In this document: positions 1-40,250 of the stretch, piece by piece
Layout of the letters: every line of letters starts with the position of its first letter
Numbering within the stretch: the stretch's first letter is position 1
Assembly: GCA_008632985.1 (NCBI GenBank)
Contig: QPGO01000199.1
Coordinates: 1-64,000 of the forward strand
Length of the DNA stretch: 64,000 bases
Direction of reading: 5' to 3'
Source: Psammoneis japonica
Lineage: Eukaryota
Made by a program: the position numbers and the translations under genes
Notes under the pieces: model-generated
What the model was told of the DNA's origin: nothing
Databases searched by the model: none
What the model saw: only the letters and a program-made list of their open reading frames with translations

Positions 1-503
1 ATCTGTAACGGTTCTATTACGTTTTTAAATATCGAACCTTCAGCTTTATAAGTAAATATGCAAACGAAGCACATGAATGCGGAACAGCACGATACGAAGC
101 ACCAAAAAAAAAAGAAACCATGACGAATGGTGAATGCGATGAAGCCAAAACAAGTGGTCGTAGCCTCTGTTCACAGCAGAATGCAGAAACGCATGGCCGC
201 AATGATCAAGGTGCTCCTTGGTCGTCATCATAAAACTTCAAATCACACGGTCCGATGTCAGATGACGCTCTGAACTGCTCAACGGAGAACAGAGTGGTGG
301 GGCGGCATGACGTCACCTCTGTCCTCCAGTTGTCCACTTGTCATCGGAGTGGCGAATGACGCAAAAGTTTGGGAATCCATGCCACAAGCAGCGTGGTCAA
401 TGCTGCACTTGTCATGCCTGGCTTTGACTGGATTGGACACGACTTTTGGGAGGACCAGCAGGTCAGAAGGGCGCGCAAATTCTCGCAGAACTGGGGCCTG
501 TTT

Positions 504-896
504 GACGCGTTCCAGCCCCAGGTGGGACTCCGTGTGACATTGGGCCCGCAGAATTCTGCGTGCGAGCTCCGCAACATGAGAATTTAATCAATGGATGCAC
601 ACATCTTCAACGTCAAACAAACGGCCAAGTTTGTGGCACAATTGCGCCTCTTGCCACTCAGTGTTTTTGCAGGCGCGCCTGCCCCACATGATTCTTAAGA
701 CATTGTGGAATCGCGCTGTGACAAAAAATGTCAAAAGTTGTTGGATGGATCGCTCAACAAGTGTGCCATAAAATGACACAAAACATCGAAAAAATCACGC
801 AGAAATCTGCGCGCATGACATGCGATGAGATTCAAAAAACTGTCGACGTCACAGCTCAGCAGTGCGAGGTCCCACCTGGCAGACCTGGAACACGTC
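504..896. mobile_element. MITE, GAC-terminus family, copy 1 (TpA-depleted)
   Basis: TIRs GACGCGTTCCAGCCCCAGGTGGGAC ... GTCCCACCTGGCAGACCTGGAACACGTC; 4-bp TSD GTTT on both sides; colinear with copy at 4011-4401. Confidence 0.9.
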
Positions 897-2692
897 GTTT
901 GCAGAAAATGTTGATGTGCTCAACGTCTTCATGGTGGATCCAACAAACCTCAATGTCTTGTTTTGTGAGGCGGGTGTCAGAGATTTGATCGACACTTGTG
1001 CTGAGACGCAAAACAAGCCTGCAAGTTGGGGAGCAAGGTTCGTTGTCACAGACGTCATGAACGACTTCAAGACAACTCAAAACTCAATCAGCTCATCAAG
1101 AGCATGTTCCAGCATTTCAGAATTTTGGACAGTCCACTGATGCCACCAACCTTGCGGCGCGAGTGACAGCCAACAGCTGGCGGCTCGGTTTCCCACTGGA
1201 CTCAACTTGGGGTCGATTGAAGGGTTGCACAGGGCCTTTGGTTTCTTCAGATTGTCTCGAAAACAACAGCTCTGATTCTGAAGTGCAGCTTCTCGGGAGA
1301 CATGAGACAAAAGACTCTTGAGGCACTTTTCAATGCTTTCTTCTTGGTCCTCAGACTTGAGGCTCGTTGATTTGGTCTCCCAATTCTCTCCAATGGTCTC
1401 TCCTTGCACAGCAGATGCACTTCTTGGACCTGATCGACTTGTGACCTGAAATTCCATCCAGCCTTGACTTGGTGCAGACCTTTCAACAATGCTGTGCTCT
1501 TGCAAAGTTTTTGGTCCTGAGGCACTTGAAATGGATCGTGTTGGAACGAATCCCTTTGTCTTGAAGACAAAAAATGGGGTTCCATCTTGAGGCACTGCTC
1601 GGATTGAGCTGCTTCCGCTCGGAAATCGATTCCAGCAGAACCAGCGCATTTCACACCTGCTCATGGAAGCATTTGCAAAGGCACGCTGGCTAAAATTTTC
1701 ATTTTCCATGTTTTTGCCTTCTGTGGTGTGTGCACACAATGCACCATGCTCGAAGAACAAGCACAAACAAAAGCAGAATCAAGCATGAAAAGTGGAAATT
1801 ATGAGATTGAATTTTGCTCTGTGATTTTTGGTTTCTCCAAACGAGCTCTCAATGGCCTGAAGCTTCTGCACTGCTTCTGCAGACAAAAGGCCTTTCGGAG
1901 AACATGTTCGTGACAACAGATTGTCCAGATGCAATTGCCATTGACACACAAGATGTCAACATCATCAATCGATCGTGTTTGCAATTTTTGACATCCGATC
2001 AACTCTGTGTGGTCATTCTGTCCTTTGTGCACATTGTGCGATTGACGTGCAAACACAGCGCACAATTGTGAACATGCATGTGACAGTCACACACTGCACA
2101 TTGTCTGGCTGGATCACCAAAAAATGAGGAAAGTCATTGCACAAGAGAGAAGCTGAAGCCACTCAAAAAATTTCATTCTCTGCCTTGCATGAAGAAGCAA
2201 GCATTTGACATCATTGAATGAGGCCCCTGTCAGCAGCCAGTGGGTGCAAAGCACAAAGCTGCAGCTGTGCACACCAGCCCAAAAGAAAGGTCTGAGCAGC
2301 GCATCTGAGATTGAAAAGCTGCCAGAACAATGTGAAAAGAGTGGCACAAGACAGCATTGCTCATGCAGAAGCTCTTTGATCTCATGTTTCTTTGTTCATT
2401 TGGGCTTGGAATCAGCTCTCTGGAGATGAGCTCCTCCTTGGAGGCCTTTCCTGTTGCTTTGCAAAAAGCTGTTCAAACATTTCACGAGCTGCTTTGACAG
2501 CTCTGTTGTCAGCAGATCCACACTTCAAATGTGTCGCTGAGCTCTCTCCTTTGATTTTAGAAAGACCACTCTCTCCATGCAATGTCATCTTGATGAGTCT
2601 GGTCGACAAATGACAGGATGCCCAGACCCTTGCTGGGTGCATTTGTTGACACCCCATTTTGTGACATTGTCTGTGGCACTCGGTTCAAAAGA

Positions 2693-3089
2693 GACACGTT
2701 CCAGGTCTAGGTGGGACCTCGTAGGGCCCTACTGCTGAACTGTGACATCGACAGTTTTTTGAATCTCGTCGTATGTCGCGCACGTAGAATTCTACGTGAT
2801 TTTTTGATATTTTGTGTCATTTTACGGTACACTTATTGAGCGATGCGTCCAAAAACTTATGACATTTTTTGTTACAGCGCGATTCTATAATGTCTTAAGA
2901 ATCGCGTAGGGCAGGTGCATTTGCAAAAACGTCGAGTGGTAAGAGGCATAATTGCACCACAAACTTGGCCGTTTATTTGATGTTGAAGACAAACACATCC
3001 ATTAATTAAATTCTCGTACTACGGAGCTCGCACGTAGAATTCTACGGGCCCAATGTCACACGGAGTCCCACCTAGGGCTGGAACGCGTC
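2693..3089. mobile_element. MITE, GAC-terminus family, copy 2 (TpA-intact, inverted relative to copies 1 and 3)
   Basis: TIRs GACACGTTCCAGGTCTAGGTGGGAC / GTCCCACCTAGGGCTGGAACGCGTC; TSD AAGA; near-identical reverse complement of 4011-4401. Confidence 0.92.
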
Positions 3090-4010
3090 AAGAGTCAGAG
3101 TTGAACTCCTCAAATTGCCTGTCAGGCAGTCCCTTGATGAACCCTGGCAGCAACATCAGAACAACCACCACAGAGCAAAGGACAACCAGCTTCACCCCTG
3201 CCAGATGGAGGGGCCATGGGATGAACCCTGGCATCATTGCAGGCACGTGCTTTGCCAAACCAAAAAAAAGACAAAAAACAGGGCCAAGAATGAACACAAC
3301 AAAGACAGCTCTCGACACAGCAACTTTCCTTCCCTGGCAGTGACTGCATTCTGGGGCTGTTTGTTAGACAGACAACTGCAGCTGCTCCCCCTTTGTCCCT
3401 TGGAAGCACTGGAGGGAGACAAACGACCCATGGCAAAAACAGGAAACATGCAAAGAAGTGCCGAGTGAAATGCCAGCGATGCAAAAAACAAAAAATTGCA
3501 AATGAAATTTTGTGCGAAGTCAAACGGATCAAAATGAAAATTTCAGAATGCCCATGACTGCAAGTTCAGTGCACCTGCAACAACATTGGATGCAGAGATT
3601 GAAATTTTTGTCAACAGGGAGGGAAAAAATCCCTGTGGAGAAAAAGAGGTCTCGGGGCATTGCTGGGAAAAATGACAGCACCACCCAAAAAGAGCTGGAG
3701 ACTTGCACAAAGAGCAAGTGCAGGGGGGCATGCAGGGGGTGTGGCAACTTGAACAATTGGTGAGTTTGCGTCTGTTTCTGGAAGGTTGTGAGATCAAATT
3801 GAGCCAAGGGGACGTCAATTGAATGTTGTTTGGCATGCCTGCAGGGTTGATGCGGGTGCCACTCGATTCAGTCAGGGCCACAAGAAATTGATGCAGGTCA
3901 GCTGCATTGAATGAAGGCAAGGGCTCATTTGATGAATGGAAACCCAACGGATTCATGCAAGACATGCGTTGAGCCCGCCTCTGATGAAGTTCAGATGACG
4001 GTTGAAGGCA

Positions 4011-4401
4011 GACGCGTTCCAGCCCCAGGTGGGACTCCGTGTGACATTGGGCCCGTAGAATTCTACGTGCGAGCTCCGTAGTACGAGAATTTAATTAATG
4101 GACACATTTATCTTCAACATCAAATAAACGGCCAAGTTTGTGGCGCAATTATGCCTCTTACCACTCGACGTTTTTGCAAATGCACCTGCCCTACGCGATT
4201 CTTAAGACATTATAGAATCGCGCTGTAACAAAAAATGTCAAAAGTTGTTGGACGGATCGCTCAATAAGTGCACCGTAAAATGACACAAAATATCAAAAAA
4301 AATCACGTAGAAATCTACGTGCGCGACATACGACGTGATTCAAAAAACCATCGATGTCACAGTTCAGTGGCACGAGGTCCCACCTAGACCTGGAACGCGT
4401 C
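4011..4401. mobile_element. MITE, GAC-terminus family, copy 3 (TpA-intact)
   Basis: TIRs as above; TSD GGCA; the empty site is visible in a homologous sequence at about 25775-25810 (reverse strand). Confidence 0.92.
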
Positions 4402-4708
4402 GGCACACACCAAATGAAGATTCCTTGCTTTTTAAAAGACTCACACCTTGTGATCACCATGATGTTTGAACATGCTCTCCAGGTGTTTCTTCTTGCATTT
4501 GGTGTTGAACGTTGCCGCCACTGCAGCCGATCCCATGGTCGACTTGAGATGCGTGGCGTGTCTCTGCATTTCCGAGAGAAGAGATTGATTTTGTGGGTTG
4601 TGTGCTTTCGGTCGAAATTCGACAGCGCGATTGCCGCGTGGCGGACGTGGCCCAAAAGCGTCGTGAACCGAAGAGGGATCTCAGATCGAACAAACACAAC
4701 AGCAGAGG

Positions 4709-6321
4709 ATGAGCAACCACACCATCATGGCCACGGAAAATGGCGAGGACAGCGTTTCAAGCAATGATGCGGACAATGGCGATGACAGCGTCTCTGTTGA
4801 AGATGAGGGACCAATCATCAGCGACGAAGATTTTGCCAAAAATGAGCCAAGGGTTTTGGAAGCGTTGACCAGTGGAGATCCACGCAACTGCAGAAACCTG
4901 ATTTTGCCTTTTGGCGGGACATCCCCGAGGAGCTGCAGACCAACCCAGCGTTTCTAGCCAAGGCGGTTAGTGCGGGTGTGCAGAATGTTGCTTTCGATGC
5001 TGACAACAATTTGACAGCCCCAGAGTTCTTGGATGACCTGACAGCGGTTCCTGGTGCAGATGCCCTCGACAGCATGATGGAACAAAACCCCAATTTGGCA
5101 AACAAGAGGAAGTTCTGGTTGGCCGTCGCTTGCTCCTGTGACGCTGATTGTGTCAGAGGTGCTCCTCCTGGGATGTGCTCTGACAAGGAGATCCTGACAG
5201 CAGCGTGTGCAAGAGGGTGTTTGTGGGACCTTCTGGACGAGACTGCATTGAACGACAGGGTCTTTTGGTTGACCATTGCTCGCACTCTGGAAGAGGATGA
5301 GCATGACCAACACTTTGTTGAACACCATTTTGAGCAGCATGCTCCTCATGCTGTGCTCTGTGACAAGGAAATCATGGTGGAAGTGTGTTCAAGGGGATTC
5401 ATGTGGGAGCATGCTGATGAGGCTGTGCTGAACAATCCAGCCTTTCTGAAGGACATCCCACAACGGGACCCGAAATTTTTGAACCGTTTGGAGCCTGCAA
5501 CATTGTCTCGATTCCCCAACACTCTCATTGCGTTCTTGCCAATCGCCTTCCGCAGAGTGTGTGATGGCAATGATGCTGACTTCTTTGCATGGGAGAGGTC
5601 CATGGCAGATCAGATTCCTCAGGAAATGTGGAACAACAATCGCCATGTTGTCTGGGCTTGGTTCAAGGCAGGAGGCGCTTTCTTGCAAGGGAAGCATGGA
5701 GAACATCAAAACGATCCGCTTGTTGGTGGTTGGATTTGCCAACATTTTTTGCTTTCTGAGAAACTTTTGGAGCATTTCAGACTTGCGGCACCTGCATTGT
5801 TGAGCGAAAAAGATTTCATGATCAAAGCTGCTGCTCTCAACCTGAACATCTTTCATGTGGCAGCAGATGGTCTTCAGCTTGATTTCTCATTTCAGTTGGC
5901 TGCCTTTGGGGAGAGGCCTGATCATTGTCCACACACCAATGGTGAAACGTGGCCGAATCTGCGCCACTGCATGATGCAGTTTCGCGCAAAGGCCTCCGAG
6001 GAATTGCAGTCGCACCGCGATTTTGAGTTTTCAGCTCAGCGAATTCCTGACGTGTTGCCTTTTCATGTGACTGCAAACTCGAAAGTTCTTCCGGACGATG
6101 CCAGGGTCAAAAAGCTTGAGGTTGTCATGGAGAACATTGCCGCCGCCTCATTGGTGAAGAGTGGCACCATCTTCTGTGAGTGTCGGCAGCTGCCGATGGG
6201 ACAACCCACAACTCTTGTAGTGTGTTTTCCAACTGGCAGCCCTTCTGCATGTTTTTTTTTAAATGAGTGCATGGTAAAAAGGCCAAAAGGACGGACTTTC
6301 TGTTGTTTCTTAAATGAGTGA
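4709..6321 (+). pseudogene. DUF4116-like repeat protein, frameshifted and TpA-mutated
   Basis: Repeated DKEI(L/M)xxxCxxG / LLSEKDFMIKAA motifs resembling DUF4116 repeats; frameshift between ORFs 4709-4957 and 4978-6321; no Tyr in 447 aa. Confidence 0.55.
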
Positions 6322-6665
6322 CGGTGCCGTCTTGGAGCTGCAACAAGCGCGCCAAACCATGATTTCAGCATTTTAGCTCGCATCACTCCATTGTTTGTGC
6401 TCAACGTCTCGACGGCTCCACTTTTTGTTGTGACGGGCTGTCATCACAATGCACGGGGACATTGCCTTTCACAGAGATGCAACGAAGCAGTTGGTGCAAG
6501 ACACCTGTGCGAGCAAAGCAAAAACTGCTTGCGCCCCCCTTAAAAGAGTTAAGCTGTTCATTTCGTAATTCAACACAACTTCAACAAGTTTGCCAATCTC
6601 ACATTCCCCATCACAACACACAATCATCACATGACAGGCTCGTCATTTTCCCACATTCCATCGTG

Positions 6666-8490
6666 TCAAATCGATCCATCGGGGTGTGCTTTGACACACT
6701 TGCTGTGTGCGGCACCCGCTTTCCATTCTCCCTTGCAGCAACGTCCATTGCTCCAAAAGCATTCCCCGGACCCATCGTAAAAGCCATCTCTCCATCCTCC
6801 CTTGCAGCAACCACCATTGCTAAATCGATGCTCATCCTCCCCGTCTTGCTGTCCGTGTGCAAAGTCACCGGCACACTGACTCCCATCGGGCCACGCAAAT
6901 TGGCCCTTGCCATGTCGCTTGTTGAATGCAAGCTCCCCGTTGCAGGTGCATCCATCTTGCCATTGATGCAAGCCACCGCCGTGGCGTTGATCAAAGTGGC
7001 ACTTGCCTTCACAGGAATCGCCATTGCCAAAGATGGCCTTGCCAAAACCGCGCCACATGTCGTGATGCCAATCGCCCTCACAGGTGTGCTCGTCGACCTG
7101 ATGGACCATTTTCCCCAAACCGTGGGGCATGCCAAAATTTGTGAATTGACCAATTGCTGTCGTTCCTCGTGATGGGTGGAGGAGGCCGCGGCAATGCTGG
7201 TCATGGTGGCATCGTCGCCGTCATTGTGGTTGCTGTTGTTTGGAATGTACAAGCGCTCCATGTTGTTGTTGTTCAGTGGCTTGCCATCCACCATGCTGGT
7301 TGGAACTTGTGGTTCATCCAGAGAATGACCCTTGGGAAGCAAGGCATCATCATTGGAGGGTGCAATCAAGCTCATTGGTGACAACGCGTCTTCCTCTTGT
7401 TGTTGCACTGCCGCCGGTTTTCGATCATCATCTTGAACTGTTTCGAGTGCTGCCGGTTTATGCTCGTCATCTTCTTCCTCTTCTGGTTCCTCCTCCATTC
7501 ATTCAAAGCTGGAAGATGTGCCGTGGTTGGGCTTTCAGTGGCAGCCGCTGCAGCAGCGGTTGGGTGTGGTGTTTGTTTGCGGCGCGCTGGCGCCATTTCC
7601 GGAGCAGCCGCCATTGGACCACTGCTCGACAGTGCCGCCGCTGCACCCACCGCTGCAGCCGTGCCAACTGCAGCCACGGCCGTGGCCGGAGCAGTGTCCA
7701 TCTTGTTGGAAGTGACGGGTGTTTCCACTCGACTGCTGTTGCTGCTGCTCATGGAGGAAGAATCATTTGGAAGCCTTGGCCGTCTTTTTCGATGCCGCAG
7801 CGACAGAACATTCTTCATCATCATCTTGTTCCTCATCATCGTCGTCTTGAGCCGTGACCATGACGTGATGCTTGCGGGGAGCAGTGGCAGGAGCGTCTTT
7901 GACAGACGCTGCTGCAGTCGTGATGGTGCTCTCCTCGGTGAGTGGAGACTTTTTCGCATCGGGAACGGGGCTCACATGCGTTGGTTTCACAATTTGAATC
8001 AAGCCTTGGATCTCTTGTTTGGCAACATGCTGCTTTTGCTTTTCCTCCTCCTCCTTGTCATCATCTTTACGACTGCTCTTGCTTTGATTCTCAATCGATT
8101 TCTCCACGTCTTTTACTTGCTTTTCGACATTTTCCGAGGGCACTCGCTGCATTGTGGCATTGTCATTGTTGCTGCTGTCACTGCCTGCTTCCATGGAGGC
8201 TTGCAGCTTGTGCCACATCGGATGCCGGTTCCAGGTCATGCTTGATTTGTTCTCATTGTTGCAACCAATGTGTTTGTTGCTGTTGCATCTTTTCCATTTG
8301 TTGCGCCAGCGTGGCAACCACGATGTTGTTGCTTTGTGGTGATTGCACCCAACCGTTGTCATCGTCGGCGTCCATGATTTTCATGTCCACACTGCCAGGA
8401 GCACCAGTGCTGATTGTGTTTGCATTCATCATGTCTGTGTGCGTGAGTGTGTGTGACTGACATGTGTTGCATTGTTGCAGCTGTTGTGGT
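6666..8490 (-). pseudogene. MORN-repeat protein with low-complexity N-terminus, frameshifted
   Basis: ORF 6666-7130 has about 6 MORN repeats (xEGxWxxxxxHGxG) with the consensus Tyr replaced by Cys; upstream acidic/Gln-rich segments in shifting frames; 5' limit approximate. Confidence 0.75.
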
Positions 8491-11400
8491 TCTCGTGCTG
8501 TTGCATGTTTGGGTTTTGTTGCATTCCCCTCTCGGAACAATCCGATGCATGATGATGCTTCGGCGGAGGTGCATCGCTGCGGTTGTGTGTGTGTGCTTGC
8601 TGCTTTCCGTCCCAGCTCCATGATGCCACGTGTAAAAATTGACCCCCAGTTTTTAACCAAATGCCCACCTCAATCGACTGACAGCACACAGATGCGCAGT
8701 TCAGCACAATTTTGGGGGCCTGGAATGGGGGCAGATGTCAGTTGCTTGCCAATCACTGAATGTTGACTCTTGCACTTGCCCGTGTTGCAAAGGTGCTCCA
8801 CGAAAAGTTGGCTCTGTTTTGAAACACCAGATGCCATGAACAATGCACACCTGTTGCATTCTCGCAAGACATCGGTTTGAAGAGCATGAGACCGACAATG
8901 CTCACATCTTGTGCATTTTGTGGCTCTGCTCTCTCTGGCCACACGGCAGACAGCGGGGGTCAAAGTCCAGCTGATCTCTTCCAAAAAATGTGAGTCGAGC
9001 GGGTCATGCGGGATTCAAGACGCGTGACTCACTGCACGTGAAGGGAAACTTGACCCTTTCTTGACACCGAGATCAGATGATGACATCAACACAAGAGCTG
9101 TTTCATGGCTGCACTCTATTCTCCAATCCATGGCTGGCCTCATGACAACTGTGTTTGACCTGTTTCATGCCATGGACAGGCCAAGCAATCCACGAGAACT
9201 CACCCCACAAGCACCAGCACACTTTTGGTTGAAGGGTCAAGGAAAATGATGGCAGTTTGAACATCCTGATCAGCGACAATGTTGACAGGAAGGTCAGTCC
9301 ATTGGATGTTCATTGTGGAAGCATGCTGTGTTGCTGCTTTCTGGAGAGAAGACAGAAAAGCATTCACACGAGCCTTGTTTGCATGTGCCGCCACCTCCAG
9401 ACAGCCAATCTTGATGATGTCTCTTGAAGCGACCTTCAGCCTTCAACACCTTCTCACCAAAGCCAAATGGCGACTTCTGAGTCATCATTTGAAAACACTC
9501 CAGTCATGAGAAAATGTCGTCATGTCATTGGGTCTGGCCGCAGCTGGCAGGTGTTAGAAAAAGCAGCCCCGCAGCCAATGGCAGCAACATTTTGCACCAG
9601 CGCACACAGGCATGTGGTGTTTGCTACATTGAAGCAGCATTTGCTGCTGCCGCCAGTCAAAATGTGCAGTGGCAGGCAGCGCCACAAGGGTGGTGCCATC
9701 TTCTGTCTCTCTTTTCCACGCGCGCCTTCTTTGTGTGTGGCCTCAGCACCATCCAGCTCTGCTTTGGTGGCTGACCATTCAACATGAGAAGAGCAACATC
9801 ATCGCAAGTTTTTTGGAAGACAAGGAGAGTGTGGCAGCTGTCTCAGATGTCTCCTGGGTTGACGCACAGCAATGACTGTGGGACAAGGGCTGGCATGCAA
9901 GAAAGTCTGTGGCAGAGCAGCACAGCACCAGCTGGGGCACAAAGTCATCACCAGGTTTGCCAGCGGAGGAGCGGCAATGTGGCAAACACTTGTGCTGCTT
10001 GCAACACATGACCTCTGGCTTGCCTGGTTGGTGTGCTCTCAGCTGGTGAGCACTTTGCTCAATTTGGCTCAACTGAGTGAATCCCCAAAATTTCCCGGGA
10101 TTGCCACATTTTGCTGCTGTGTTTTCCATGGGAAGTGCGATTTGCAGGGAGATGCAACACGTGTGCTGCTTGTCACACATTTGCTCCTGTCATTGATGCA
10201 AATTCACACATTGGCAGTTCCTTGTGCTTCATCTGTCATGCATTTCTGTGCTCCTTCTGCATCATGTTGGGCAGCGCACATGTGCCAGACAGCGGAAATC
10301 GACAATTGACCGCACCGGCCACAACAAAAATGGGCAACGTGCAGCTTTTGCTGACCAACCATGACTCCATTTGATGCATTTGACAATGTTGATTTAATGG
10401 GGTCGATGGCACAAAACACAAGATGAAATGTGATGGGCTGTGCTGTGCAGAAGAATGCCAGCACAATTGGCTGTCAGCCGCAATTTGTTTTTTTAATGTG
10501 CAGCCACAAATGCAAGCCATGAGGTGCACAGTGAAGGCCAAGGCAAAAGTGGAGCCATGCATGGTTGACAAACACAATGTGGCAGATTGAACAGACAATC
10601 TCGTTCTTCCAACTGACACGCATCTCGTGTGCATGTGCAGAACGAGCATGAACACTTCCGCGTGTGTCGGCATGCTTGGATCAATTTCGTCAAGAAATGC
10701 TCACCCAAGTTGATGGTGACAATCACACATTCAAATCCAATGTTCACATGTTGGAGTTTGGAGAATCAGCAAATCAACCGATGTTCTTCACAAGATGGAC
10801 CTTTTTTGGTGGAAGACGTGCAGACAAAAATCGCTGTTTGTGACAGATGCACTCCATGAAAGTTCTGCATCAGAGTTGCATTGTGGCTCAAAAGGTTTGA
10901 CCAAATGTTTTTGATTTTTGCTTGTCCATCATCCATGTTCTCCGTGCCTTTTGTGTGAAAAAAAAAGCCATCGACCATCATGAGTGCGCTGTTCCGAGGT
11001 CGTCAATGTCGACAATTGAGGAGGAATTGGGGAATGACAGTCTCTCTTGCCCCCAACAGAAGGACACTGTGAGGCAACTGCTCCTCAAAGTTTTGATTTT
11101 AGTGATGTTTTTTGCATTTTCACTGACTCAACCACATTCGCCTGTTGCCGTTGCCACCAACAGAGTGCGAACGCACCCAAGACCTCACCAGCAGAGGTGC
11201 GTGCTGCCGTTGACTCCTTTGTTGCCATGAGGGGTCAATGGCAATGATTGTTGGTGGTTGGAATGAATGGTGACAAAGTTTTTCAAGTGCTTGAGATGCT
11301 GGAAGCTGTTGGAATGGAGACTCCTGATGGATTGGGCTCATCTGACCAAACCAATGTAAGAAGTTCTTTGAGTGATGTTGCAACTGTTGGCACTCCATTG

Positions 11401-11922
11401 TTGATGCAACACATGCCCAAGCCAGCCATCTGGGGCTCTCAGGCTGGTTTGTCTAAAAAAAAACAGTGACAGCTGCTGCAAGGAGAGGCTCCTCAAAAGT
11501 TTGGTTTGAGCCAGTGCCACGAAACACACTCTCTGGGGTTTGCTGCACCTGCAATGCAGCAGGGAAGCCAACACCTTGCCAAAGCATTTGAGCCAATCAC
11601 CCAAACTGGTGAGACAATTTGAAGCACCACGACTTCTCAGTGGGCAGCTGTCTCAATGAATGCAACCTGATGCATGGCCAATTCTGCAATTGATGCTTGA
11701 GCATTTCAAAAGAACTGTGTTCAGTGCAAAAAAACTGGACCTGGAGCTTGTCTGGGCTTGACGATGTCACGTGATGGCATGGAAGAGCATCACACTTGGG
11801 GCATGCCATGACTGCTAATTCGCCCTTTTCCCAATCTCTCTGCCACCATGATCCCGTTGTAAGTGCCACCTGGTTTCAATTCTGTCCCACTGTTCAAACA
11901 TCGCGCGTCTTTGGTTGAGAAC

Positions 11923-11988
11923 AAGGATCTCTTTTTGCGTTGACAAACTCAAGAAAGGATCTCTTTTTGCGTTGACAAACTCAAGAAA
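11923..11988. repeat. 32-bp direct tandem duplication
   Basis: AAGGATCTCTTTTTGCGTTGACAAACTCAAGA x2. Confidence 0.85.
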
Positions 11989-13604
11989 AGACTCGATTTA
12001 CAATTCATCATTGAGCTCTTTTGTCTGTGAGCAGAGTCGTCGCTGCATGTCTTCTGACGTCTGCTTTCGCAGTTCCACTCTCGTGCAGCTACAGTGTTGC
12101 ACACCTGCCTCCTGCGGCTGCTTCTGTGAAGTCACTCATGTGCAACAGCTGCCAGGCCCTGAGTCTAAATGTCCAAGCGACAGACAGCACTGAGCAGGGA
12201 TGTCGGCATGGAAGAAGATCACACTTGCGGCATGTTTCGACTGATTCCTTTGCTCGGTGGCGTCTCATGCTTGGCGTCAATTCGCATGCCCATTTCACCT
12301 TGTCCCCAGCGTCTCTGCTGGCAAAGACTGGTCTGTGGCACCTCAACACCGCTCCCCTCTCATTCAAGTCTACTCCATGTCATTGTTGCCATCACTGTCT
12401 TGAGTCAACGCCCGAAAGAGTCCCTTGGTGTCATTTGCACCATGACAGCCACGGAATTGAAAGTCTTGCGACGACGTGGCAATGTTTTGAATTCTTGTGC
12501 TTGCGGGAGAATGCTCCAGTTGCAGCAGCAGTGGCAATGCCGTCAGTCTCACGCTCCACTTGTTTTTCTGCTTTCTTCCTTTCTAATTCTTGCTTGCACA
12601 CTTGCAATTGCTTCTGCGCCTCCTTCCACAGACTCTCCTCCTTTTCCAATGCCGCAAATTCCACCATGAGATTCAATCCCTCCTGCTTGGTGGCATGATT
12701 CAGCTCACACAGCTGCTTGGCTTTGAGCAGAGGCTGTTGCTTTTGCATCTCCTTTTTTCGAAACGACGCTTGGCTGCTTCTTGTTTTTCCAATTGCTTTT
12801 GTTCTTCAAGTGGAACACACACGACAGTCTCACGCTCGACACGCGTCTCTTGCGCTCCGCGCTGAACACCTGCCGCCACGGCTTGACAAATGGAAACCTG
12901 ACATTCCAAAAGCACTGTTCCAATCATCTGATTGATTTTGGTGCTTGTCAACATCATCTTGAAAAACATCCTCGTACAACACTTGGACCAGAGCCTTGGA
13001 CGGAACCTCGGTTTCGACGGGGCATTCTACGAGCGGTCGCACTGCAGAAGCAGCAGCGAGCAGCGGGTGGTGTGGATGTTTTGGGACGCTTCATGAGAAT
13101 CGACGTGGGCGATTGAAACCACAGTGACATCAAGGAACTTGGATGCTTCCTCGAAAGTGTGCAAATGACGAAAAAAGACATTGCAAGGTCATCGGCGTGA
13201 GCCGGGGCATCATCGTCGCAGTCACGACTCAACGTCATTCTGGTCGCATCTCACGACTGCAACCCAGACTCAGATTTTCTCTTCGAAATAAATGGCTCAT
13301 CACAAAATCGATTCAAACAGAAGCAATGACATTCGTCATAATTTTTAGACAACGACCGTCTGTTTGCCTCTGTCGCTGTTCACATTGCTGCCAACCTCTG
13401 AGGTCTTGTCCATCCTGCCCGCTGCAGGACTGCATCTCGACTGGTCACAGAGCCCAATTTGCGTGTTGACGAGAGCTCCTGACCGAGTCATTGTCACGGA
13501 CACTTTTGGTTTTTGATTTTGAAGCAAACCCAGGAAATGGCTGAGTCTCTCTCGCTTCTCTTGTCTTCATTCTAACAAGAACCTCCCACACTGCACTCTC
13601 TGTC

Positions 13605-16600
13605 ATGGCTGCCATCGATCCGGATGTTCTGGCGAAGGCGTTTGCCGATGCAATGGCTGCTGACACAGCAGCGAACGCTCCTCCGCCTCCAACCAAGCCG
13701 TTGCATGGTGGAGTTCACCCAACCCACGGGGTTTGCATTGGTGGCTCCAAACTCGACGACAACTGTGAACAATCCAACGACAGAACCTGCCGACTCGCCT
13801 CTCAGCGCCGTCATCCCAAGGCTCTTGACTCGATGGAACGATCTCTCCGCGATCAACAAGCTTCCGCAATGACTTCCAAGTTCAACGGTCGACTTGAGAT
13901 TTCGGACGGTCCCATCAACGAGCTTGACAAGGACCATTTTGTCAAGACCATTCGAGATCTAGCAGAAGCCCATGGTCAGCAGACGTTCTGCCATGTCAAG
14001 AACAGCGACGACAAGGTTCAATGTGTCTTCGAACATCTCCACGAGTTTGCTGTGACCGATCTCGTGAACGAATGCAAAGTTGGGAAAGCAGCTGCCGATG
14101 ACACCAAGTGCGACGAGATCGAGCTCGACGACATCGGGCTCTCTCAGCTGCTCGTTCACTCAAGAATCACCAATGCCTTTTGCGAGAAAATCGAGACCAA
14201 GTTCAACCATCTCAAGGACTGCCAAGACTGCCCTGGATCTGTTCCATTCATGATGGCTCTCGACACTTGCAATGCCAGCGCTCCAACGGATGTTGAGATG
14301 GCCAAGAAGCAGCCAGAAGACCTCAGTTTGGTCAACTGTCCTGGCAAGGATTGCACGGACTTTGCTGCCGAAGCTCTTCGCATCGTGAAAATCATGCAGA
14401 CCGACTGCACACTTCCGGCGAACACAAGCTCCAAGCTGCTCCAAAAGATCTCCTCTGCGTCCTCTGAACACTTCAATTGGAGAGTCCACAACAAGCTTGA
14501 CGACGTCAAGGCTGTGGAACGCAAGTGCCACCTCAAGAATCCTGCTGACATCACGTCCGACAGCAATTGCAACACGCTCGGACCGGTCGGCATCATTGCG
14601 TGGATTCAGGAGCAACACAATGAACTCGTGAAGGACGGGGAGTGGCCTGCTTTGGTTGCCAAGCCACCCAAGAGCAATCTTTTGACTGCGGATGACCCTG
14701 GGAAGACAAAGCACTGTCATGGTTGCGGTCTCGAGGGGTGCACCAAGAAGACGTGCCCGAAGTGCAATGCCAAACGGCCGCGCGACGATCCTCCTACGAA
14801 TCCGCCACCTGCAGACAACCCTTCCAAGAAGAAGCAGAGACCCATCACTGCCTGGCGCATTGAATTTGACGGAGAAACAAAGAAGGATAAGAATGGCAAA
14901 GAATGGAAGTGGTGTGCCACGTGCACGGCGAAGGGTGCCGACAAACCTGGAATCTGCCAGAAGCACTCTGCCGCGGAACATGCCGCAGACCACAAACGTC
15001 CTCCCAAGGAAACCCCAGCCGGGAATCTGTCTTCCGTTGCTGATCCAGACAGTGGCATGCCCATGGGTCTGCCAGCTCAGACTGCCAAGGAACCAGAGGG
15101 AGACGAATCCGACCCCAACGAGTTGGTTTTCACGGGAATGTGGTGCGCGGCTGCGGATGCCGTTGCCAACCCGGATTTCTTTTCCGACCCTGTCACTGCT
15201 GCAATTGTTGTCACTCCGGCTTCTTCGGCCGAGAGGGAGAGCGACACAGTTGTCAGCACTGAGGTGCTTTGCAACGAAACGAGCCCACCTGTGCTCACCT
15301 CAGTCGTGGATCCAGTCATGTCTCCCATTGTGGTTGAGACTGTCACTCCCGAAGACGCCGATGACTTCTGCGAATGCTCCAACGCTTTCTCTGCATTTGA
15401 AAACGAACCACCGGCTGTTGAGTTGTTTCTGGCCTCAAAGCTGTGCTCTGTCAAGCATCCAGATGAGTTCTTTGACGCTCCCGCAAATTTGACGGACATG
15501 CTGTCAGATGACACAAAGTCAGATCTCATCCTTGAACATGACGTGCACTTTGAAGACGCACACGACGACTTGCCTCCGTGTGTTGCATGTCGTGGCTTTG
15601 ATTTCTATGATCCAGAGATCCTGGACATGGATGATTGTCACGAGGATGTTGAAGACGAGCCCACTTCATGTCGATCAATCTTGGGACGGGTCAAGCTGTT
15701 CATGTTCTGGCTCACCGCCATGTTTTGGGAAATGGTGCTGCACTTTTGCTTTGCTCCGATCCCAAGTGTCCCTCGAGCTCCATGCCACCAGGGCAAACTC
15801 CCAACCTTGCACGGGTTTCCAGCCTCTTGGATGGTCCCATCCGTTGCAGTTGCGGCATGGTCAGCAGTTTGCGCCGGTCGACAGCCCGAGTGTCCATTCT
15901 CAAATGCACCAAGCCGTTTTTCGACCGCTGGCTCTCATGTCTGCCACACTGTGGAAGAGCTGGATGACCGGACAGTGTTGGATGCGGGGTCACTGTTCGA
16001 ATGTCACAGGATCAAAGGCACACAAGCACTCACCAAGTTTGTCGCACACCATCCGTCACACGCACTGAGCACTCGTCTCAAGGCCTGCTGGGAGAGCCTG
16101 GAAGCAGCTGAAAGGTCTGACGCGACAGACGAATCAGCCTTCTTTGAAACCTGTGAGGAACTGGAACCTCTCGACGACCAGAAGCATTTCTTCGACGCTC
16201 TTGAGGACTTCAGCCCAGATTTCTTCCAGTTTGACGAGCTCTGTCTGCCCAATCACATCGTGGACACTGCTCATTTTCAAGATCCTGTGGAGCCATTGGA
16301 GGACGCACGTGTTGGGCCAGTCGTCTGCAACACCTCCACCATCCAACTGCTCACCGGACAATCTCAAGCCGACCTTCTTGCACCCGATCCGCAGGCACTC
16401 ATCAGTCTGTCGGACGAAGCTCTCACGGTCGTCATGGATGCTGGTGCCATGCCAGCTGTCACCCCCGACAAAGATGATTTTGCGGGGCCCATGACTGTTC
16501 CCAAGACACCCTTGCAGATCAATGGGATTGCCAACGGTCTTGCCATCCAGGGTGCTGGCCCGGTTGCGTGGGTGTTCACCATGCTGAGTGGCGCCACCAC

Positions 16601-16769
16601 CCAACTGAACACCATGGCGTGCCACATCCCTGGAGCCCGTCAGTGCCCACTGTCGCCTCAACGCCTCTTCAATGAAGAGAAGGGGGTGCGTGGGAAGCAT
16701 GAGGGCAATGAAACCACTTTCCGCTTGCATTTGCCAGATGCATCACCCTGTCACATTGCGACAGTTTGA
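13605..16769 (+). mobile_element. Truncated Ty1/Copia (CoDi-like) retrotransposon gag + aspartic protease ORF
   Basis: Gag zinc-knuckle-like CxxCxxxxCxxxxC and WKWCATC...H motifs; protease-like VMDAGA...TP.K.DF.GP...I.GIA.GL.I.G.G.V.W.F; ends before integrase; only one Tyr seen in 1054 aa; LTRs not verifiable. Confidence 0.8.
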
Positions 16770-18629
16770 TTGAATTGCCACATGAAATTGGCGTGTTGAC
16801 TCGGCTCGTTTGTTTGCAAGTGAACTGTGACAATCTTGCTCCTTTGCCTCCAGAAATTGGTCAATTGCAGCGACTTTGTGAGCTGGATCTTTGTGGTTGC
16901 ACGAGTCTTGAGCAACTGCCTGCGGAGATTGGACAATTGCAAGAGCCAGAACACTTGGATTTGTCTCTTTGTTTTGGTCTTGAGCAACTGCCTGTGGAGA
17001 TTGGACAATTGCAAGAACTGGAAAACACTTGAACTTGAATGGTTGTCACAATCTTGAGAAACTGCCTGTGGAGATTGGACAACTGCAAGAACTGGAACAC
17101 TTGAACTTGTGCGCTTGCAAGTCCCTTGCACAGCTGCCGAGAGAAATTGGAAATCTCCGTGGGCTGCTTTCCCTTGATCTGTTTTGTTGCTCCGGATTGA
17201 CTTTTCTTCTGAGTGAAATGTTTCAGTTGACCAATTTGATGCGGTTGAATGTGTCTTGCTGCAAGCATCCTGAAGAATTGCCAGGAGCCATTGGGAATCT
17301 GGTGAATCTTAAAGAGTTGTCTCTGAGCGGCTGCTCTGGCATTGCACAGAGCTGTCAAGGGAGCTTGAGTCACTTGCGAGCTTGGAATGGCTGTGTCTTG
17401 ATGAATGCAAGCATGTTGAAGAATTGCCAGGAGCCATTTGGAATCTGGTGAATCTCAAAGCGTTGTGTCCATGCCGCTGCTCTAGCATTGCAGAACTGCC
17501 AAGGGAGCTTGAGTCACTTGCGAGCTTGGAAAGGCCACATCTTGATGAATGCAAGCATCTTGAAGAATTGCCAGGAGCCATTGGGAATCTTGCACATCTT
17601 GAAGAGTTGTCTCTAAGCGGCTGCTCTAGCATTGCAGAACTGCCAAGGGAGCTTGAGTCACTTGCGAGCTTGGAAAGGCTGTGTCTTGATGAATGCAAGC
17701 ATCTTGAAGAATTGCCAGGAGCTGTTGGGAATCTGGTGAATCTCAAAGCGTTGTCTCTAAGCAGCTGCTCTAGCATTGCAGAACTGCCAAGGGAGCTTGA
17801 GTCACTTGCGAGCTTGGAAAGGCTGTGTCTTGATGAATGCAAGCATCTTGAAGAATTGCCAGGAGCTGTTGGGAATCTGGTGAATCTTAAAGAGTTGTCT
17901 CCAAGCGGCTGCTCTGGCGTTGCAGAACTGCCAAGGGAGCTTGAGTCACTTGCGAGCTTGGAAAGTCTGATTCTTGATGGATGCACCCAACTAACGGAGA
18001 TCCCAGCTATTGGGAATCTTGTGCATCTTGAAGAGTTGTTTCTGCGCGGCTGCTCTAGCATTGCAGAGCTGCCAAGGGAGCTTGAGTCACTTGCGAGCTT
18101 GGAAAGGCTACATCTTGATGAATGCAAGCATCTTGAAGAATTGCCAGGAGCCATTGGGAATCTGGTGAATCTTAAAGCGTTGTATCTACGCCGCTGCTCT
18201 AGCATTACAGAACTGCCAAGGGAGCTTGAGTCACTTGCGAGCTTGGAAAGTCTGATTCTTGACGGATGCACCCAACTAACGGAGATCCCAACAGTCGTGC
18301 TACAGGCACTGACAAACTTGAGAATTCTCTCTTTGGAGGGTTGCTTGAGCCTAACGACAACACCGCAGGAAATTCGAGAGGCTTCGTATTCGCTCACGAG
18401 CGTGACTACTCCATTCAATGCCATGCAACCTGAAATGAATTGCCACACAGCTTGGAATAGGGCCGGACGCTATCTGCTCCGCCAGGACGACACGCCGTTG
18501 GCGTTGTGGCCCAATGTTTTGGAAAACTCGAGCGACAATCCAAATGCGTTGTTCTTGTTCTTGACAAACAAACCAGACATGTGTAAGTTTGGTACTACCG
18601 AGGAAACGCGCAAGAACAGAGATGAGTGA
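16750..18629 (+). pseudogene. Leucine-rich-repeat protein (LxxLxxLxLxxCxxLxxLP type), 5' part frameshifted, 3' ORF 17382-18629 open
   Basis: 24-aa LRRs in 144-bp (48-aa) tandem units; C-terminal N..GRYLL....P.ALWP.VL...LF.FL..KP motif of the kind seen in diatom LRR proteins; frameshifts near 17030 and 17350. Confidence 0.85.
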
Positions 18630-19356
18630 TCTTACACATTAGAAGTACATACGTGTGAACAATGCCACCGCCCACTACTGGAGAGTTTGGGCAGATACCA
18701 TAAGACGAGGACGAAGAAATTCCCCTCTCTATTATAGAGCACACTCTCTAGAGAGTATTGTAGTAGTTTTGCTGCTTTCCGGTTTTTGGGTTGTGCTGCT
18801 ATATGTTGTTGTCACAGGTTTCTCCATGAGTCGGGGAGCCTTCTCTCTCTCTCTTCATAGTCGAAGAGAAATAGTCTAAGAATATTATAGACTCCACACA
18901 AAGATATTGTATGCAAGGCAGTGGAAGTAGAGGTAGTTTCCGTTACCTGAGGCAATTTACTCTTTAGAGAGAGTATTGTACAAGTAGTGTGTTGCCTTAA
19001 GCTGCTTTCCGGCCGTTGGGTCGGTGCTGCTGCCTTGTCACTTGTCTCTCTTCATCGTCGAAGAGCAAACGTTGTTGAAAGTGCTTGCACGTCGCTTCAC
19101 TTTCTCTTACGTCCTTATTATCTGTCGCTTCAATCTATAGAACCGGAGGAAAAGGGAGCTAAGCCTGCCAAGCCCACAAAACAAAACAGAAGCAGAAGAA
19201 GTCGAAATCGGCAAAGACAAACAAGAACAGCATCGTTAGTATCGAGAGGGAATATCATGCCTTGCCTAAATCTGTATACTTTGGTTGTACTGATGCTGCA
19301 TCTCCTCTCTACACCTGGTATCGGTATTCAGCTAGGCAAAAACCGAAGGGCAAGCA

Positions 19357-20130
19357 ATGGCTCAAGTGCTGAGTACGTTCAATCGCATGGAACGGGTTCG
19401 TTTTGAAGCTTTCAAACGGTACACCTTTCGCGGCGATGCTGTGTCATCTTGTGTTGTGCACTGCATTGCTGCATCACATGAAAGAGCTTGTGCTGGTGGA
19501 GAAAAGATTCGACAGAGTTCCTGGGCTCCTCTACCTGGGAATTGGAGGTGAAGCCCAGAATTCCAACAACGCTTTGCCACGGCGATGTCCGTACATCCGC
19601 GATGGGACTGGCAGTAGTCTAATGGTCACAACAGCAGCGACACTAGTTCAGTGTCTGATGGTGAGAATGGACGACGAAACGGTGGTCGACCAAAGCGCTC
19701 CCTTGAAGATATGGTTACGCCTGCAGAATCTGAAGAGATTACTGTTGTTGTGTATCCACACTCTGGCGAAAGCATGTGCACAGCGACTGGGACGGCGGCG
19801 CGTCGAGTTGCATCTTCCAATGGGCGAGAAAATGGAGCACTATCTTTAAACGATTGTTTGATTATATTGCACACCAAGCTTGTGCCCGCGGCTGGTTTGG
19901 ATCCAGGGTTATTCTTGCAATCGAGCATGCATCGACTACTAACGTTGTGGCTGGTAATTCTCAAGCCTCGGCAACGGGCGGCTCTGGGTGTAGTCAACCG
20001 TTACGAACTGGTGAGAAATGCCGCCCTTGCAGCGCAAGAGGAGTATGACCAACAGCTAGAACAAAAAGGGGTCAAAGAATCTGAGAAACGCGTTGGCGAA
20101 GATACTGATGCGGCGGATGAGGAACCGAAA
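19357..20130 (+). pseudogene. TAF11: TAF11 (TAFII28)-like histone-fold protein, disrupted
   Basis: AQVLSTFNRMERVRFEAFKRYTF and EEITVVV/TLAKACAQRL segments match the TAFII28 histone-fold pattern across frameshifts. Confidence 0.55.
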
Positions 20131-20576
20131 GAAATGAAATCCAACAGACCTAATAATTCCTCTAGTTTGCCAATGCTTAATATTTATTGTACCGCTAAGA
20201 TCCTCATCCACCATGAGATAGAGATGATATGGTACGTAGACTACCGGTAGTTCTAACTAGATCATTCGCTCGTGTCCGTCACCGCCACAGGGCGAACTCG
20301 AACCGCCTCAGAAGAAACTTTATTATCGTTCCACAAGAAGTTGGTACAGGACCTATCTAATGCTGACTCTAGTAGAGAGTACTGTCATACTGTATCGACA
20401 AATTGGTGTGAGCTCCTTAAAGACATAGGCTCTAACTACAGTACTCTTTACTTTACACTCTAGCTGTTTGCTGGGGGGGGCTCCCAAGCAGCAGAGATTA
20501 GTAACTGACCAAACCCGGGGCTTATTCTTCGTTGCCAGTCGAAGACAAGAGAGGGCTCTTCTTTCTTCGAGCTCTC

Positions 20577-21940
20577 TTAATTCCCCGTAGATTTGCCTGG
20601 CATTCCGACGACTGGGTCACGCTCGTCCATGAAATTAAAAGTTGGTGCAGAAATCAACTTCTTGCGTTGCGCTCGTAGATACGTGGTTGAGAAATCCGCC
20701 TGCTTTTTGGCTTCCGAAAGGAATTCCTCGTCTGTTGCAGTACCCTCAGAGTTTGCAAGGATGATTCTCGATTGATCAAAATGAGCTCTGGACCATATCG
20801 GGGAAAGCAGTTGTGTCGGGAAATGTCGTCTGGTAGCTCCTTCCACATCATTCCCGGTCGTGCTGCTTCGCAGGCGCTGTCGTAGCAATAGCACAAACGT
20901 GCGAGCAGTCTGCACCGTATTGTAGCCTCCGCCTCCAAGAATTAGTAGCTTACAATCACAAACAATGTCAGCATCACTCGATTTATCATTGTTCACAATA
21001 TGGACTCCGTTTTTCATCGTATCGCAACTTATCTCGTTCTGAGAAGTACCAGAGCAAAACTCGCTGGCAACGCGGACACATTCGGCAAGTCCCTCGGGGG
21101 TGAGGCCCCAACCGTCTGTTTCTCCAACAAGCGGATCAGATTTCAGTCCATCAGCACCCACAGTGAGAACCAGTGCATCAGGACAGTACGAACTGTATAG
21201 ACTGTCCAATTTGTATCGAAAGAAATGACAGAACTCCAAGTCTCTTGTTGATTTCGCTAGTGGAATGTTGAGATTGTGTCCCCACTCCCGGTGTGCCGTG
21301 TTGACCCTTTTCTTTCACAGAACCCCGATGTTGACGGAAAGAAACCTGGTGTATGTCGATGAAACGATATGGTCAATACTCGATCCGTATCATAAAAGGC
21401 ACGTTGGACTCCGTCGCAGTGATGAATATCAATATCCATGTAAAGGACTCTCTGAAAAGTGTTTTGCAATCGTCGAATGGTCATTGACAAAGCAAAACCC
21501 ACCCGCCTGGTCCGCATGGGCGTGGGGCGTGGTGACGACGACCACCCCAACTGATTGCGACATTAGCCTGATTGGTTGCCAGCAAGTTGACCGCCTGCAG
21601 GGATGCACAAACTACGTGTCGACAATACTCCCATAGAGTCTTGCGTGCCTGTACGCTCGTGGGCAAAACACAATCCTCAGTAAGACCCAGCGAGGCCAAC
21701 AACTACTTCTAGTTTGGGTGGTTCCAGGACATTCAGATAATGCTCGTGATGAAATCTCTCGAGATGTTGTCTCGTTGCTTTTTTGGGTTACAACCTTTAG
21801 GAATTTGGGTGTTTCACGGAGAAAGCCGCAATAATCCAGTAATCCAGCTAACAATAAGTCGCGGTCTTGGTGAATATGTGAAACATGCTGCATGGTACTC
21901 TGCAAGACTTTCGTGTACTCGTCGGCTCGTTGGAATGTAA
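20577..21940 (-). pseudogene. Class I (HDAC8-like) histone deacetylase, multiple frameshifts
   Basis: Motifs [59 protein letters not shown] spread over several frames. Confidence 0.88.
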
Positions 21941-22489
21941 AAGAGCAACCCGTTGCGGGGATTTTCTTGACCTTCTACCACCGAAATTTGTCGACAACTC
22001 CGTCACCTGACAGTTCATCTTATGAAGAATCCTATGGAATGCAAACTATCACAGGGTAATACAAATCCTCTAGAGCCAGAGCACGGGTGTATCTGCGTAA
22101 CTTTTCTACCTAGGGCCCTACGTGATTTCTTATAAGAAGCTTTACTGACATATTCATAATTTAACTACCTTAGAGTCCATAGATAATGTTATTTTTCAAT
22201 CCTTGTACCATGAAGGTTTACAAATGATTCAAAATCCATATACAACCTTAACGAACTCGTACATAACTTATCCGGCCAGCTTGATTTCCATATCATTATA
22301 CAGGCTTCATTAATATTTCTTCATATTCTGTTCAAAAATAACGTCGCCGAGGCCGGCGCTCGGGAGATGGAACGATCGAAAACGAGTCCTCGATGACGCT
22401 GTCATTGTTGCGGCGTATCAAACGTTGTTGCTCTTTCGGTCCCTGCTCTTTCGGTTCCTACGACTACGATCACTGTATCTATCTCCAAG

Positions 22490-23658: not shown

Positions 23659-23694
23659 TTTCGAATCGATACGACTCGTCCTCAATGTGTTTGG

Positions 23695-23830
23695 GAAAGG
23701 GGAATGCAACGTGCAATGTTCGGGGAATGCAACGAAAAACCTTCAGGAATGCAAGATGTAGTATTCGGAAAATACGACATGCATTATTCAGGAAATACGA
23801 CATGCAATATTCGGGAAAGTCAAAATGTGC
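23695..23830. repeat. Degenerate ~22-bp minisatellite
   Basis: Units resembling ATTCGGAAAATACGACATGCAT, about 5-6 copies, no unique spacers. Confidence 0.6.
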
Positions 23831-25420: not shown

Positions 25421-25502
25421 TCCTCGTTGTGGTCGTGACTTGAGGCATTTCTCAAATTACTCTCGCTCGGTGTCGGCGTGTCGGCATTCGGCATGGAGGG
25501 TG

Positions 25503-25566
25503 TGGGATAATTATGGGATAATTATGGGACAATTATGGGACAATTATGGGACAATTATGGGACAAT
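25503..25566. repeat. 11-bp tandem repeat TGGGAYAATTA x ~6
   Basis: Seen directly in the sequence. Confidence 0.9.
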
Positions 25567-34621: not shown

Positions 34622-34701
34622 TTTTTTCATCTCTAGTAGAGACAGCCACCCCCCATACAACACTCCCCATAGAACACTCTACTCCTATTTGTTATTAGAT
34701 T

Positions 34702-40085: not shown

Positions 40086-40250
40086 GTACGGTATCCATGC
40101 ACATGATCGGCATACTTTCTTATAGGCTTGAGTGCCTTTTCAAGTGGAAGTCTTTACTGTAAGTAACCCAAACCCCACCAAATGGATAGGGCAATCTGGA
40201 GCAGAGAGCGCTTTAGAGAAACCAACTGAGAGTGATCAAACAGAACGTGT

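Follow-up and report, generated by a model that had tools for sequence, protein, structure and literature searches.

Can copies of one transposon that stand side by side tell in which direction, and in which order, the DNA around them was rewritten? The question is raised by a 64,000-nucleotide stretch of Psammoneis japonica (GenBank assembly GCA_008632985.1, contig QPGO01000199.1, positions 1 to 64,000 of the forward strand; here called the window), in which a miniature inverted-repeat transposable element (MITE) occurs in copies that have almost no dinucleotide TA and in copies that are rich in it. An earlier interpretation made from the letters alone, the sequence-only reading, had proposed that TA was lost and not gained, that copies 2 and 3 (c2 and c3) inserted after most of the mutagenesis recorded in copy 1 (c1), and that the process is cumulative or episodic, for example tied to the sexual cycle. 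The direction of change, from TA to CA or TG, is established by our analysis, and c2 and c3 were probably inserted after the TA of the surrounding block had been erased.

Results

A family of short transposons

Copies were defined by repeat finding, a four-way alignment and a reading of the ends. Copy c1 (504-896, plus strand, 393 bp) lies between target site duplications (TSDs) GTTT at 500-503 and 897-900 and is saturated with changes, with 3 TA left. Copy c2 (2693-3089, minus strand, 397 bp, with a private 8-bp insertion) has the TSD AAGA, as read on the plus strand, at 2689-2692 and 3090-3093 and contains 26 TA; c3 (4011-4401, plus strand, 391 bp) has the TSD GGCA at 4007-4010 and 4402-4405 and contains 22 TA. 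The paired strings by which copies 1 and 3 had been matched were located at 545-578 and 4052-4085. In addition to the three copies already noticed, a fourth, c4 (31112-31518, minus strand, 407 bp; TSD GAAT at 31108-31111 and 31519-31522; 2 TA), sits in a 2.4-kb TA-depleted block. It has about 100 bp per end in common with c1-c3, and its core is unrelated to theirs. Deletion derivatives of a single autonomous element commonly look like this, with like ends around an unrelated core.

A 25-bp pattern of the terminal inverted repeat (TIR), with at most two mismatches, matches 7 of the 8 element ends in the window and none in 100 shuffles; the right end of c1 misses it because of a 3-bp insertion there. 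The fixed-length TSDs are four perfect 4-bp duplications, all of different sequence. With 391-407 bp and four copies in 64 kb, the family is short and leaves no room for a transposase. Thus, the four repeats are one family of non-autonomous TIR DNA transposons (MITE), whose superfamily is not identified by a 4-bp TSD of no fixed sequence. No further TIR match that could mark an autonomous partner was present within the 64-kb window, and a 28-letter pattern from the conserved ends had 0 matches in a metagenome scan. Copies c2 and c3 are oppositely oriented and 921 bp apart; since each has its own TSD, they represent two insertions and not one inverted duplication.

The only public run containing the stretch, X1 (84% of sampled words), provided contigs that were compared with the window; no RNA run is listed as containing it. 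The summed word depth over the bins of c2 and c3 was 54,576-130,237, about 900-2100 times that of the flanks, although such depth is no copy number; flank depth was 55-70 over 2063-2683, 3305-3925 and 4754-6400. The MITE family is therefore very abundant.

TA-rich islands end at the element edges

For the window as a whole, the observed/expected ratio of TA is 0.33, with ratios of 1.43 for CA and 1.41 for TG, and many 500-bp bins hold no TA at all. Simple segmentation on TA density delimits depleted blocks at 250-17800, 30859-33290 and 46107-64000, with 1.5-5.4 TA per kb, and TA-normal blocks at 17974-30858 and 33291-46106, in which segments of at least 1.5 kb carry 30-56 TA per kb. The loss is thus regionally clustered, as expected of TpA hypermutation, and depleted blocks adjoin large TA-normal blocks in sharp contrast. 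The first depleted block (250-17800) houses c1, c2 and c3, and c2 and c3 are the only exceptions within it; outside them it holds 1.5-3.7 TA per kb.

Between 2001 and 4700, c2 and c3 together contain 48 TA in 788 bp, whereas the other 1912 bp contain 3 (2558, 3365 and 4433), that is, 61 versus 1.6 TA per kb (Fisher p = 6e-23). Measured inwards from the four edges, the outermost TA of the two copies lie at 15, 15, 45 and 15 bp, and the TA-free runs in the adjoining flanks extend for about 134, 275, 645 and 31 bp. At the TA-normal density of ~45 per kb, the chance of the first three of these gaps would be 2e-3, 4e-6 and 2e-13. The description of c2 and c3 as TA-rich islands whose edges match the elements in TA-depleted flanks was hence accurate. 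On the right of c1, 821-2062 is also TA-free; its summed word depth of 1,200-52,000 marks it as a high-depth repeat of its own, which probably belongs to another, older transposon family.

Ancestral TA sites were defined in the c1-c3 alignment as columns in which all copies read TA, CA or TG and in which at least one copy has TA or, failing that, CA and TG both occur; the rule yields 28 sites, with the ambiguous columns 97 and 384 left out. At these sites c1 has converted 25 (13 CA, 12 TG), as the sequence-only reading had said of most of them. Only 5 are converted in c2 (4 TG, 1 CA; 23 kept) and 7 in c3 (6 CA, 1 TG; 21 kept), so that retention differs strongly from the 3/28 of c1 (p = 1e-7 for c2 and 2e-6 for c3). 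In c4, all 11 of the TA sites that can be aligned in the shared ends are converted, as judged by eye from the alignment. Copies c2 and c3 are not identical at TA sites, a correction to the sequence-only reading, and differ from each other at 8 of 28. Four of the five sites converted in c2 have also changed in c3 (hypergeometric p = 0.008), which, if these changes were inherited, reflects hot contexts or shared history.

The direction of change

At alignment column 46, c2 and c3 read TA, c1 reads CA and c4 reads TG, and in six columns among c1-c3 one copy reads CA where another reads TG. CA and TG at the same site are two transitions apart, and each is one transition from TA; TA is therefore needed as the intermediate.

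The surroundings of c3 provide a second line of evidence. A TA-normal, element-free paralog of its flank, segment A (25565-25815, minus strand), contains 13 TA and has GGCA only once; this empty site is paralogous (79% identical) and not allelic. Its mutated counterpart around c3, flank B (3976-4672, plus strand, in the two parts 3976-4010 and 4406-4672), aligns with it by BLAST at 79% identity over 155 bp. Where segment A has 12 aligned TA, flank B keeps 0 and reads TG at 6, CA at 1, CG at 1 and something else at 4. From segment A to flank B the substitutions are 12 A>G and 8 T>C versus 4 G>A and 3 C>T. A contig with exactly the element-free junction of segment A has a word depth of 580. Directly after segment A, at 25500-25565 (minus strand), an 11-bp unit (CCCATAATTGT and variants) is repeated in tandem.

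A third line comes from the TA-free flank on the right of c3, in which an open reading frame (ORF) similar to DUF4116 (4727-6318, plus strand) has 0 Tyr and 19 Cys in 447 residues, compared with 11-18 Tyr and 7-9 Cys in its homologs (P0001-P0003, 35-50% identity). At three columns where at least two of the three homologs have Tyr, the ORF reads His, Cys and His. It is probably a dead, TA-erased gene copy. The earlier claim that TA was lost is thus supported by the discordant CA and TG, by the flank that keeps none of 12 TA, by the replacement of Tyr by His or Cys and by the same signature measured as de novo mutation in Bigelowiella natans (10.64898/2026.01.13.699255).

TA loss and general divergence

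The sequence-only reading had itself named an outcome that would count against it, namely that TA loss merely follows other transitions. This is not the case, as TA sites are far more changed in c1 than any other class. Outside TA sites, 12 of about 30 CpG of c1 have decayed to TpG or CpA, and the 333 non-TA columns show 11 other transitions (5 besides the six sites with CpG described below) and 0-1 transversions; ~4% of other columns changed. The changes confined to TpA amount to 25/28 in c1, and in flank B to 8/12 by such transitions, with the other 4 TA lost by other changes. CpG changes number 2 in c2 and 0 in c3, and transversions 4 (all private) in c2 and 1 in c3. A transversion clock for c1 against c2 and c3 was considered and dropped, because all copies are equally old to their common ancestor and the counts (0-1, 4 and 1) are tiny.

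Methylation-type CpG decay accompanies TA loss without explaining it, and its presence alongside suggests that the erased blocks are methylated silent DNA. The two processes are separable, because CpG is also lost in the TA-free stretch 56131-64000 (8.1 CG per kb) and kept in the TA-free stretch 47426-55469 (58.7 CG per kb). At six further sites (612, 847 and four others) c1 has CpG where c2 and c3 read TpG or CpA, as do 97-99% of the family depth at 612 and 847; one TA of flank B became CG. Either c1 itself descends from a master that was older, or CpA and TpG are at times turned into CpG by the mutator.

The order of events

Copy c3 keeps 21/28 TA sites while its own flank keeps 0/12 of those defined by the paralog (p = 9e-6), with one converted flank site only 9 bp from the insertion point. 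The sequence of the element confers no immunity, since c1 and c4, with ends like those of c3, are saturated. An erased flank, a TA-rich c3 and the lack of immunity by sequence are together most simply accounted for by insertion of c2 and c3 into a block that was already erased, and we consider it probable that this is what happened. Of the proposal that both inserted after most of the mutagenesis, the fit of all four edges, the TSD of each copy and the element-free paralog with a single GGCA bear out the order, while the number of copies, four, limits how far it can be carried.

The few TA-site changes of c2 and c3 might have been hits received after insertion, and 10 of the 12 conversions in the two copies fall on one strand of the window (p = 0.039). 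We rejected this interpretation, because the letters concerned are common to 30-94% of the family depth at the six sites listed. The shares were taken from X1 contigs and refer to the best-supported sites, with 246 more rows beyond them. Among these sites, c2 shares its letter with 94% of the family depth at 2990, 89% at 2994 and 92% at 2996, and c3 with 40% at 4349, 30% at 4369 and 57% at 4371, compared with 3% and 1.4% for the private letters of c1 at 612 and 847. Letters common to so many copies are most simply inherited lineage markers and not demonstrated post-insertion hits. Most simply, c2 and c3 come from two abundant sub-lineages whose masters already had a few TA-site changes, each set biased towards one strand, and the two copies may have received no hit at all since insertion. 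To call them unmutated is thus fair for the time since insertion, yet a few changes were inherited from the masters.

Equal age and unequal loss

Two long terminal repeats (LTRs) of one retrotransposon are identical at insertion, and they serve here as a control for the use of TA loss as a clock. A Copia-type element with an RVT_2 domain (49057-56068, minus strand; TSD GCAAT) has 276-bp LTRs at 49057-49332 and 55793-56068. Compared at 12 TA sites, one LTR has converted 10 and the other 4 (p = 0.036), and 4 sites read CA in one and TG in the other. Because both started identical, their differences directly demonstrate mutation after insertion, and because both have the same age, 10/12 versus 4/12 means that TA loss is no plain clock. 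A spared patch at 55470-56130 overlaps one LTR and ignores its edges, whereas the islands of c2 and c3 follow the element edges.

Across the window, the states of TA loss are at or below 18-25% in c2 and c3, followed by 33%, 83%, 89% and 100%. They are too few to be called bimodal, and the process may be cumulative or episodic.

The sequence context of TA loss

In the depleted blocks 119 TA survive in 36,428 bp; the normal blocks contain 1137 TA in 25,701 bp. Survival is best in YTAR contexts (CTAA 0.28, TTAA 0.24, CTAG 0.19) and worst in RTAY contexts (ATAT 0 of about 133 expected, ATAC 0.004, GTAC 0.035). A four-parameter per-strand model, in which the loss rate of each A is set only by its 3' neighbour, fits all ten context classes (chi2 = 3.9, 6 df, p = 0.69) and is far better than a single rate (p = 3e-26). 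The relative rates by the base 3' of A are 4.3 for T, 2.9 for C, 1.2 for G and 1.0 for A. Survival cannot separate an effect of the 3' neighbour from one of a purine two bases upstream; the choice of strand can. In c1 the strand choice obeys a rule of a 3' pyrimidine at 12 of the 16 sites that are informative (p = 0.038); it does so at 3/3 in c2 and, by eye, at 5/6 in c4. Two of the three surviving TA of c1 stand in TTAA. The ratio of YTGY plus RCAR to YCAY plus RTGR is 1.36 in depleted and 1.22 in normal blocks, a weak fit that is confounded by CpG decay and composition. TA loss is therefore context-dependent, the A being hit more often when T or C follows, which is a new observation of this study.

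Discussion

Late insertion and its alternatives

Insertion of c2 and c3 into erased DNA explains the islands most directly, and the X1 contigs reproduce the TA-free flanks at 2003-2720, 3062-4035 and 4377-6400 with 1, 1 and 4 differing letters. Several observations weigh against it or against the context preference. The order of events rests on four copies in one 64-kb window. X1 may be the source sample of the window itself and hence is not independent, its contigs reach only 25-28 letters into c2 and c3 where 31 would be needed for bridging, and no listed X1 contig spans the stretch across the two copies. Segment A is paralogous and not allelic to the flank of c3, from which it also differs by a small indel beside the site. 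An abundant family means many donors for gene conversion. As the two LTRs demonstrate, a patch that retains TA is not by itself proof of youth. The context model assumes that the TA-normal blocks mirror the former state of the depleted ones, and the strand choices of c3 are contrary to the context rule at 2/2 informative sites.

Of the alternatives, we give most room to ectopic gene conversion, which is nevertheless improbable. Copies c2 and c3 would be old, would have been erased like c1 and would later have been restored from unmutated copies of the family, with the limits of homology setting the edges. The great depth of the family and the fact that the letters of c2 and c3 are common to many copies would suit such a process. 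However, TA stands 15 bp from both ends of c2 and from the right end of c3, so that tracts of nearly the whole element would be needed twice; none of c1, c2, c3 and c4 is a mosaic of mutated and restored parts, and c2 retains its four private transversions and its 8-bp insertion.

Somewhat less probable still is that c2 and c3 were present during mutagenesis and had some form of protection, such as a chromatin state or a protein bound to active copies. Neighbouring DNA can indeed receive unequal doses, as the LTR pair of equal age shows. Yet c1 and c4 became saturated despite the same TIRs and subterminal sequence, and the one spared patch of the window (55470-56130) disregards the LTR edges, whereas the islands of c2 and c3 match four edges within 15-45 bp.

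The TA-free state could also be an artefact, if a modified base at TA in silent DNA were misread as G or C while c2 and c3 were unmodified. For X1 no library type is recorded, and the run may stem from the source sample of the window. We regard this as very unlikely: contigs at word depth 55-70 reproduce the flanks almost letter for letter, diverged members of the family are numerous and form separate contigs (1033/5358 under 90% alike), indels and CpG decay go together with the TA changes in c1 and flank B, and the same signature is reported as real de novo mutation in Illumina-sequenced lines of B. natans, in the part of that preprint available (10.64898/2026.01.13.699255). A reversed direction, with repeat-induced point mutation (RIP) or a similar C-to-T process at CpA/TpG having made c2 and c3 TA-rich and c1 being original, can practically be dismissed: RIP does turn CpA into TpA, so that two copies alone would give no direction, but CA and TG at one site in different copies already contradict it, c2 and c3 have the TA density of gene-bearing blocks while flanks at 0 TA per 500 bp require an eraser, and the DUF4116-like ORF has His and Cys where its homologs have Tyr.

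Late insertion therefore remains our preferred reading of c2 and c3.

A possible mechanism

We propose that silent, repeat-rich blocks of this genome undergo a TpA-specific A:T-to-G:C hypermutation, in which a hit on the A of the shown strand turns TA into TG and a hit on the A of the opposite strand turns it into CA. Copies c1 and c4 would have inserted early and have been rewritten along with their surroundings, whereas c2 and c3 would be separate recent insertions into an erased block and would belong to two abundant sub-lineages of a family that has recently gone through a burst. The mutator could be an enzyme that deaminates adenine on one DNA strand at a time and prefers T-A followed by T or C, and its targeting might depend on region or chromatin and not on the sequence of the element.

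By k-mer depth the flanks of c2 and c3 are single-copy, although heavily mutated repeats would look so anyway. The unmutated segment A is multi-copy (depth 580, about nine times single-copy), and repetition alone thus seems not to trigger erasure. We speculate, tentatively, that a strand-wise adenine deaminase with a T-A-pyrimidine preference is aimed at silent chromatin, and not at particular sequences or repeats, in discrete doses. If the dose reading were true, the MITE family, whose near-identical copies in erased and intact DNA number on the order of a thousand, would be a genome-wide dosimeter that tells when and where doses fall, including any match between doses and the sexual phase. 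In c2 and c3, the two sub-lineage haplotypes (4 TG:1 CA versus 6 CA:1 TG, at hot sites that overlap) would then each record a light single-strand hit on a master that was still mobile.

The locus gives internally controlled, single-site evidence on the direction, the relative timing and the wider sequence preference of the process. The ranking of the base after A, T > C > G ~ A, constrains the enzyme, and an abundant young transposon family can probe whether the process is continuous, episodic or finished.

Other features of the window

A 144-bp tandem array at 17250-18350 encodes leucine-rich repeats (Pfam LRR on the ORF 17382-18626). It spans the boundary between depleted and normal DNA near 17.8-17.97 kb, which therefore falls within an ORF. 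In a TA-normal block, 40254-45281 (minus strand) is an unbroken ORF of 1676 residues with a TNP-like RNase H domain (P-element-type transposase), a transposase-like gene that escaped erasure. Just downstream of it on the minus strand, at 39735-40085, a 147-bp tandem repeat is present three times (95-99% alike).

Comparison with known systems

RIP is premeiotic and homology-triggered. Young copies escape RIP until the next round, which resembles the case of the young c2 and c3 here. The process described here resembles RIP of Neurospora and other ascomycetes, as the available parts of two sources describe it (PMC2621366, PMC7296669), in its dinucleotide-specific transitions on both strands, which riddle repeats and reach their neighbours. 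The chemistry is the opposite: RIP changes C to T at CpA and thereby makes TpA, while here TA changes to CA or TG, and the defining C-to-T change of fungal RIP is not what we find. In contrast to RIP, too, the multi-copy segment A (depth 580) is unmutated here.

Strand-wise clustered transitions in mobile DNA are likewise seen in editing by APOBEC, which in animals edits retroelement DNA, as stated in the part of the source at hand (PMC4866542), and by ADAR, which acts on double-stranded RNA and favours U before the edited A, according to the partly available preprint on B. natans (10.64898/2026.01.13.699255). Unlike in those systems, a cut-and-paste element and non-repeated flanks have been altered here in place and on both strands, so that no RNA or cDNA intermediate explains the change. 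The tRNA adenosine deaminases TadA and ADAT2, from which base editors were derived, naturally act in the anticodon loop on an A after U and before C. This U-A-C context resembles the T-A-Y preference found here, but here T is favoured over C after the A.

Within the literature covered, which left subscription journals outside, TpA hypermutation is described only in B. natans (Mettrop et al., bioRxiv 10.64898/2026.01.13.699255), and the following is limited to the available part of this preprint. There, TpA-restricted hypermutation affects integrated giant-virus and virophage DNA. In two integrated viral regions, 11/15 mutation-accumulation lines acquired changes of TpA to TpG or CpA, at a rate of about 6e-7 per site and generation, and an ADAT2-like adenine deaminase has been proposed, which the T-A-pyrimidine preference here would fit. 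As in B. natans, only TpA is hit, the product is TpG or CpA by strand and the effect is regional. The rate there is three orders of magnitude above background, and TpA-poor coding sequences are enriched in transposon domains. The de novo pattern supports a real, regulated and non-constitutive process. Single cells isolated from a clonal culture founded the lines, and neither "sexual" nor "meiosis" appears as a word in the text available. By analogy only, this weighs against the proposed tie to the sexual cycle, which finds no support in the window.

In contrast to B. natans, where de novo mutation was measured, mutation is inferred here from copies. The B. natans regions still contain 3.3-9.2% TpA, whereas the blocks here are near saturation with 1.5-3.7 TA per kb, and the targets are transposons, a probably dead copy of a gene and DNA that is k-mer-unique, with accompanying CpG loss, instead of viral inserts. 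The main text of the preprint gives no context beyond the dinucleotide and does not use the word "trinucleotide", though its supplements may hold more. Thus, a process that strips one dinucleotide almost wholly from more than half of 64 kb has its precedent, as far as that preprint is available, in a single 2026 report on an unrelated alga.

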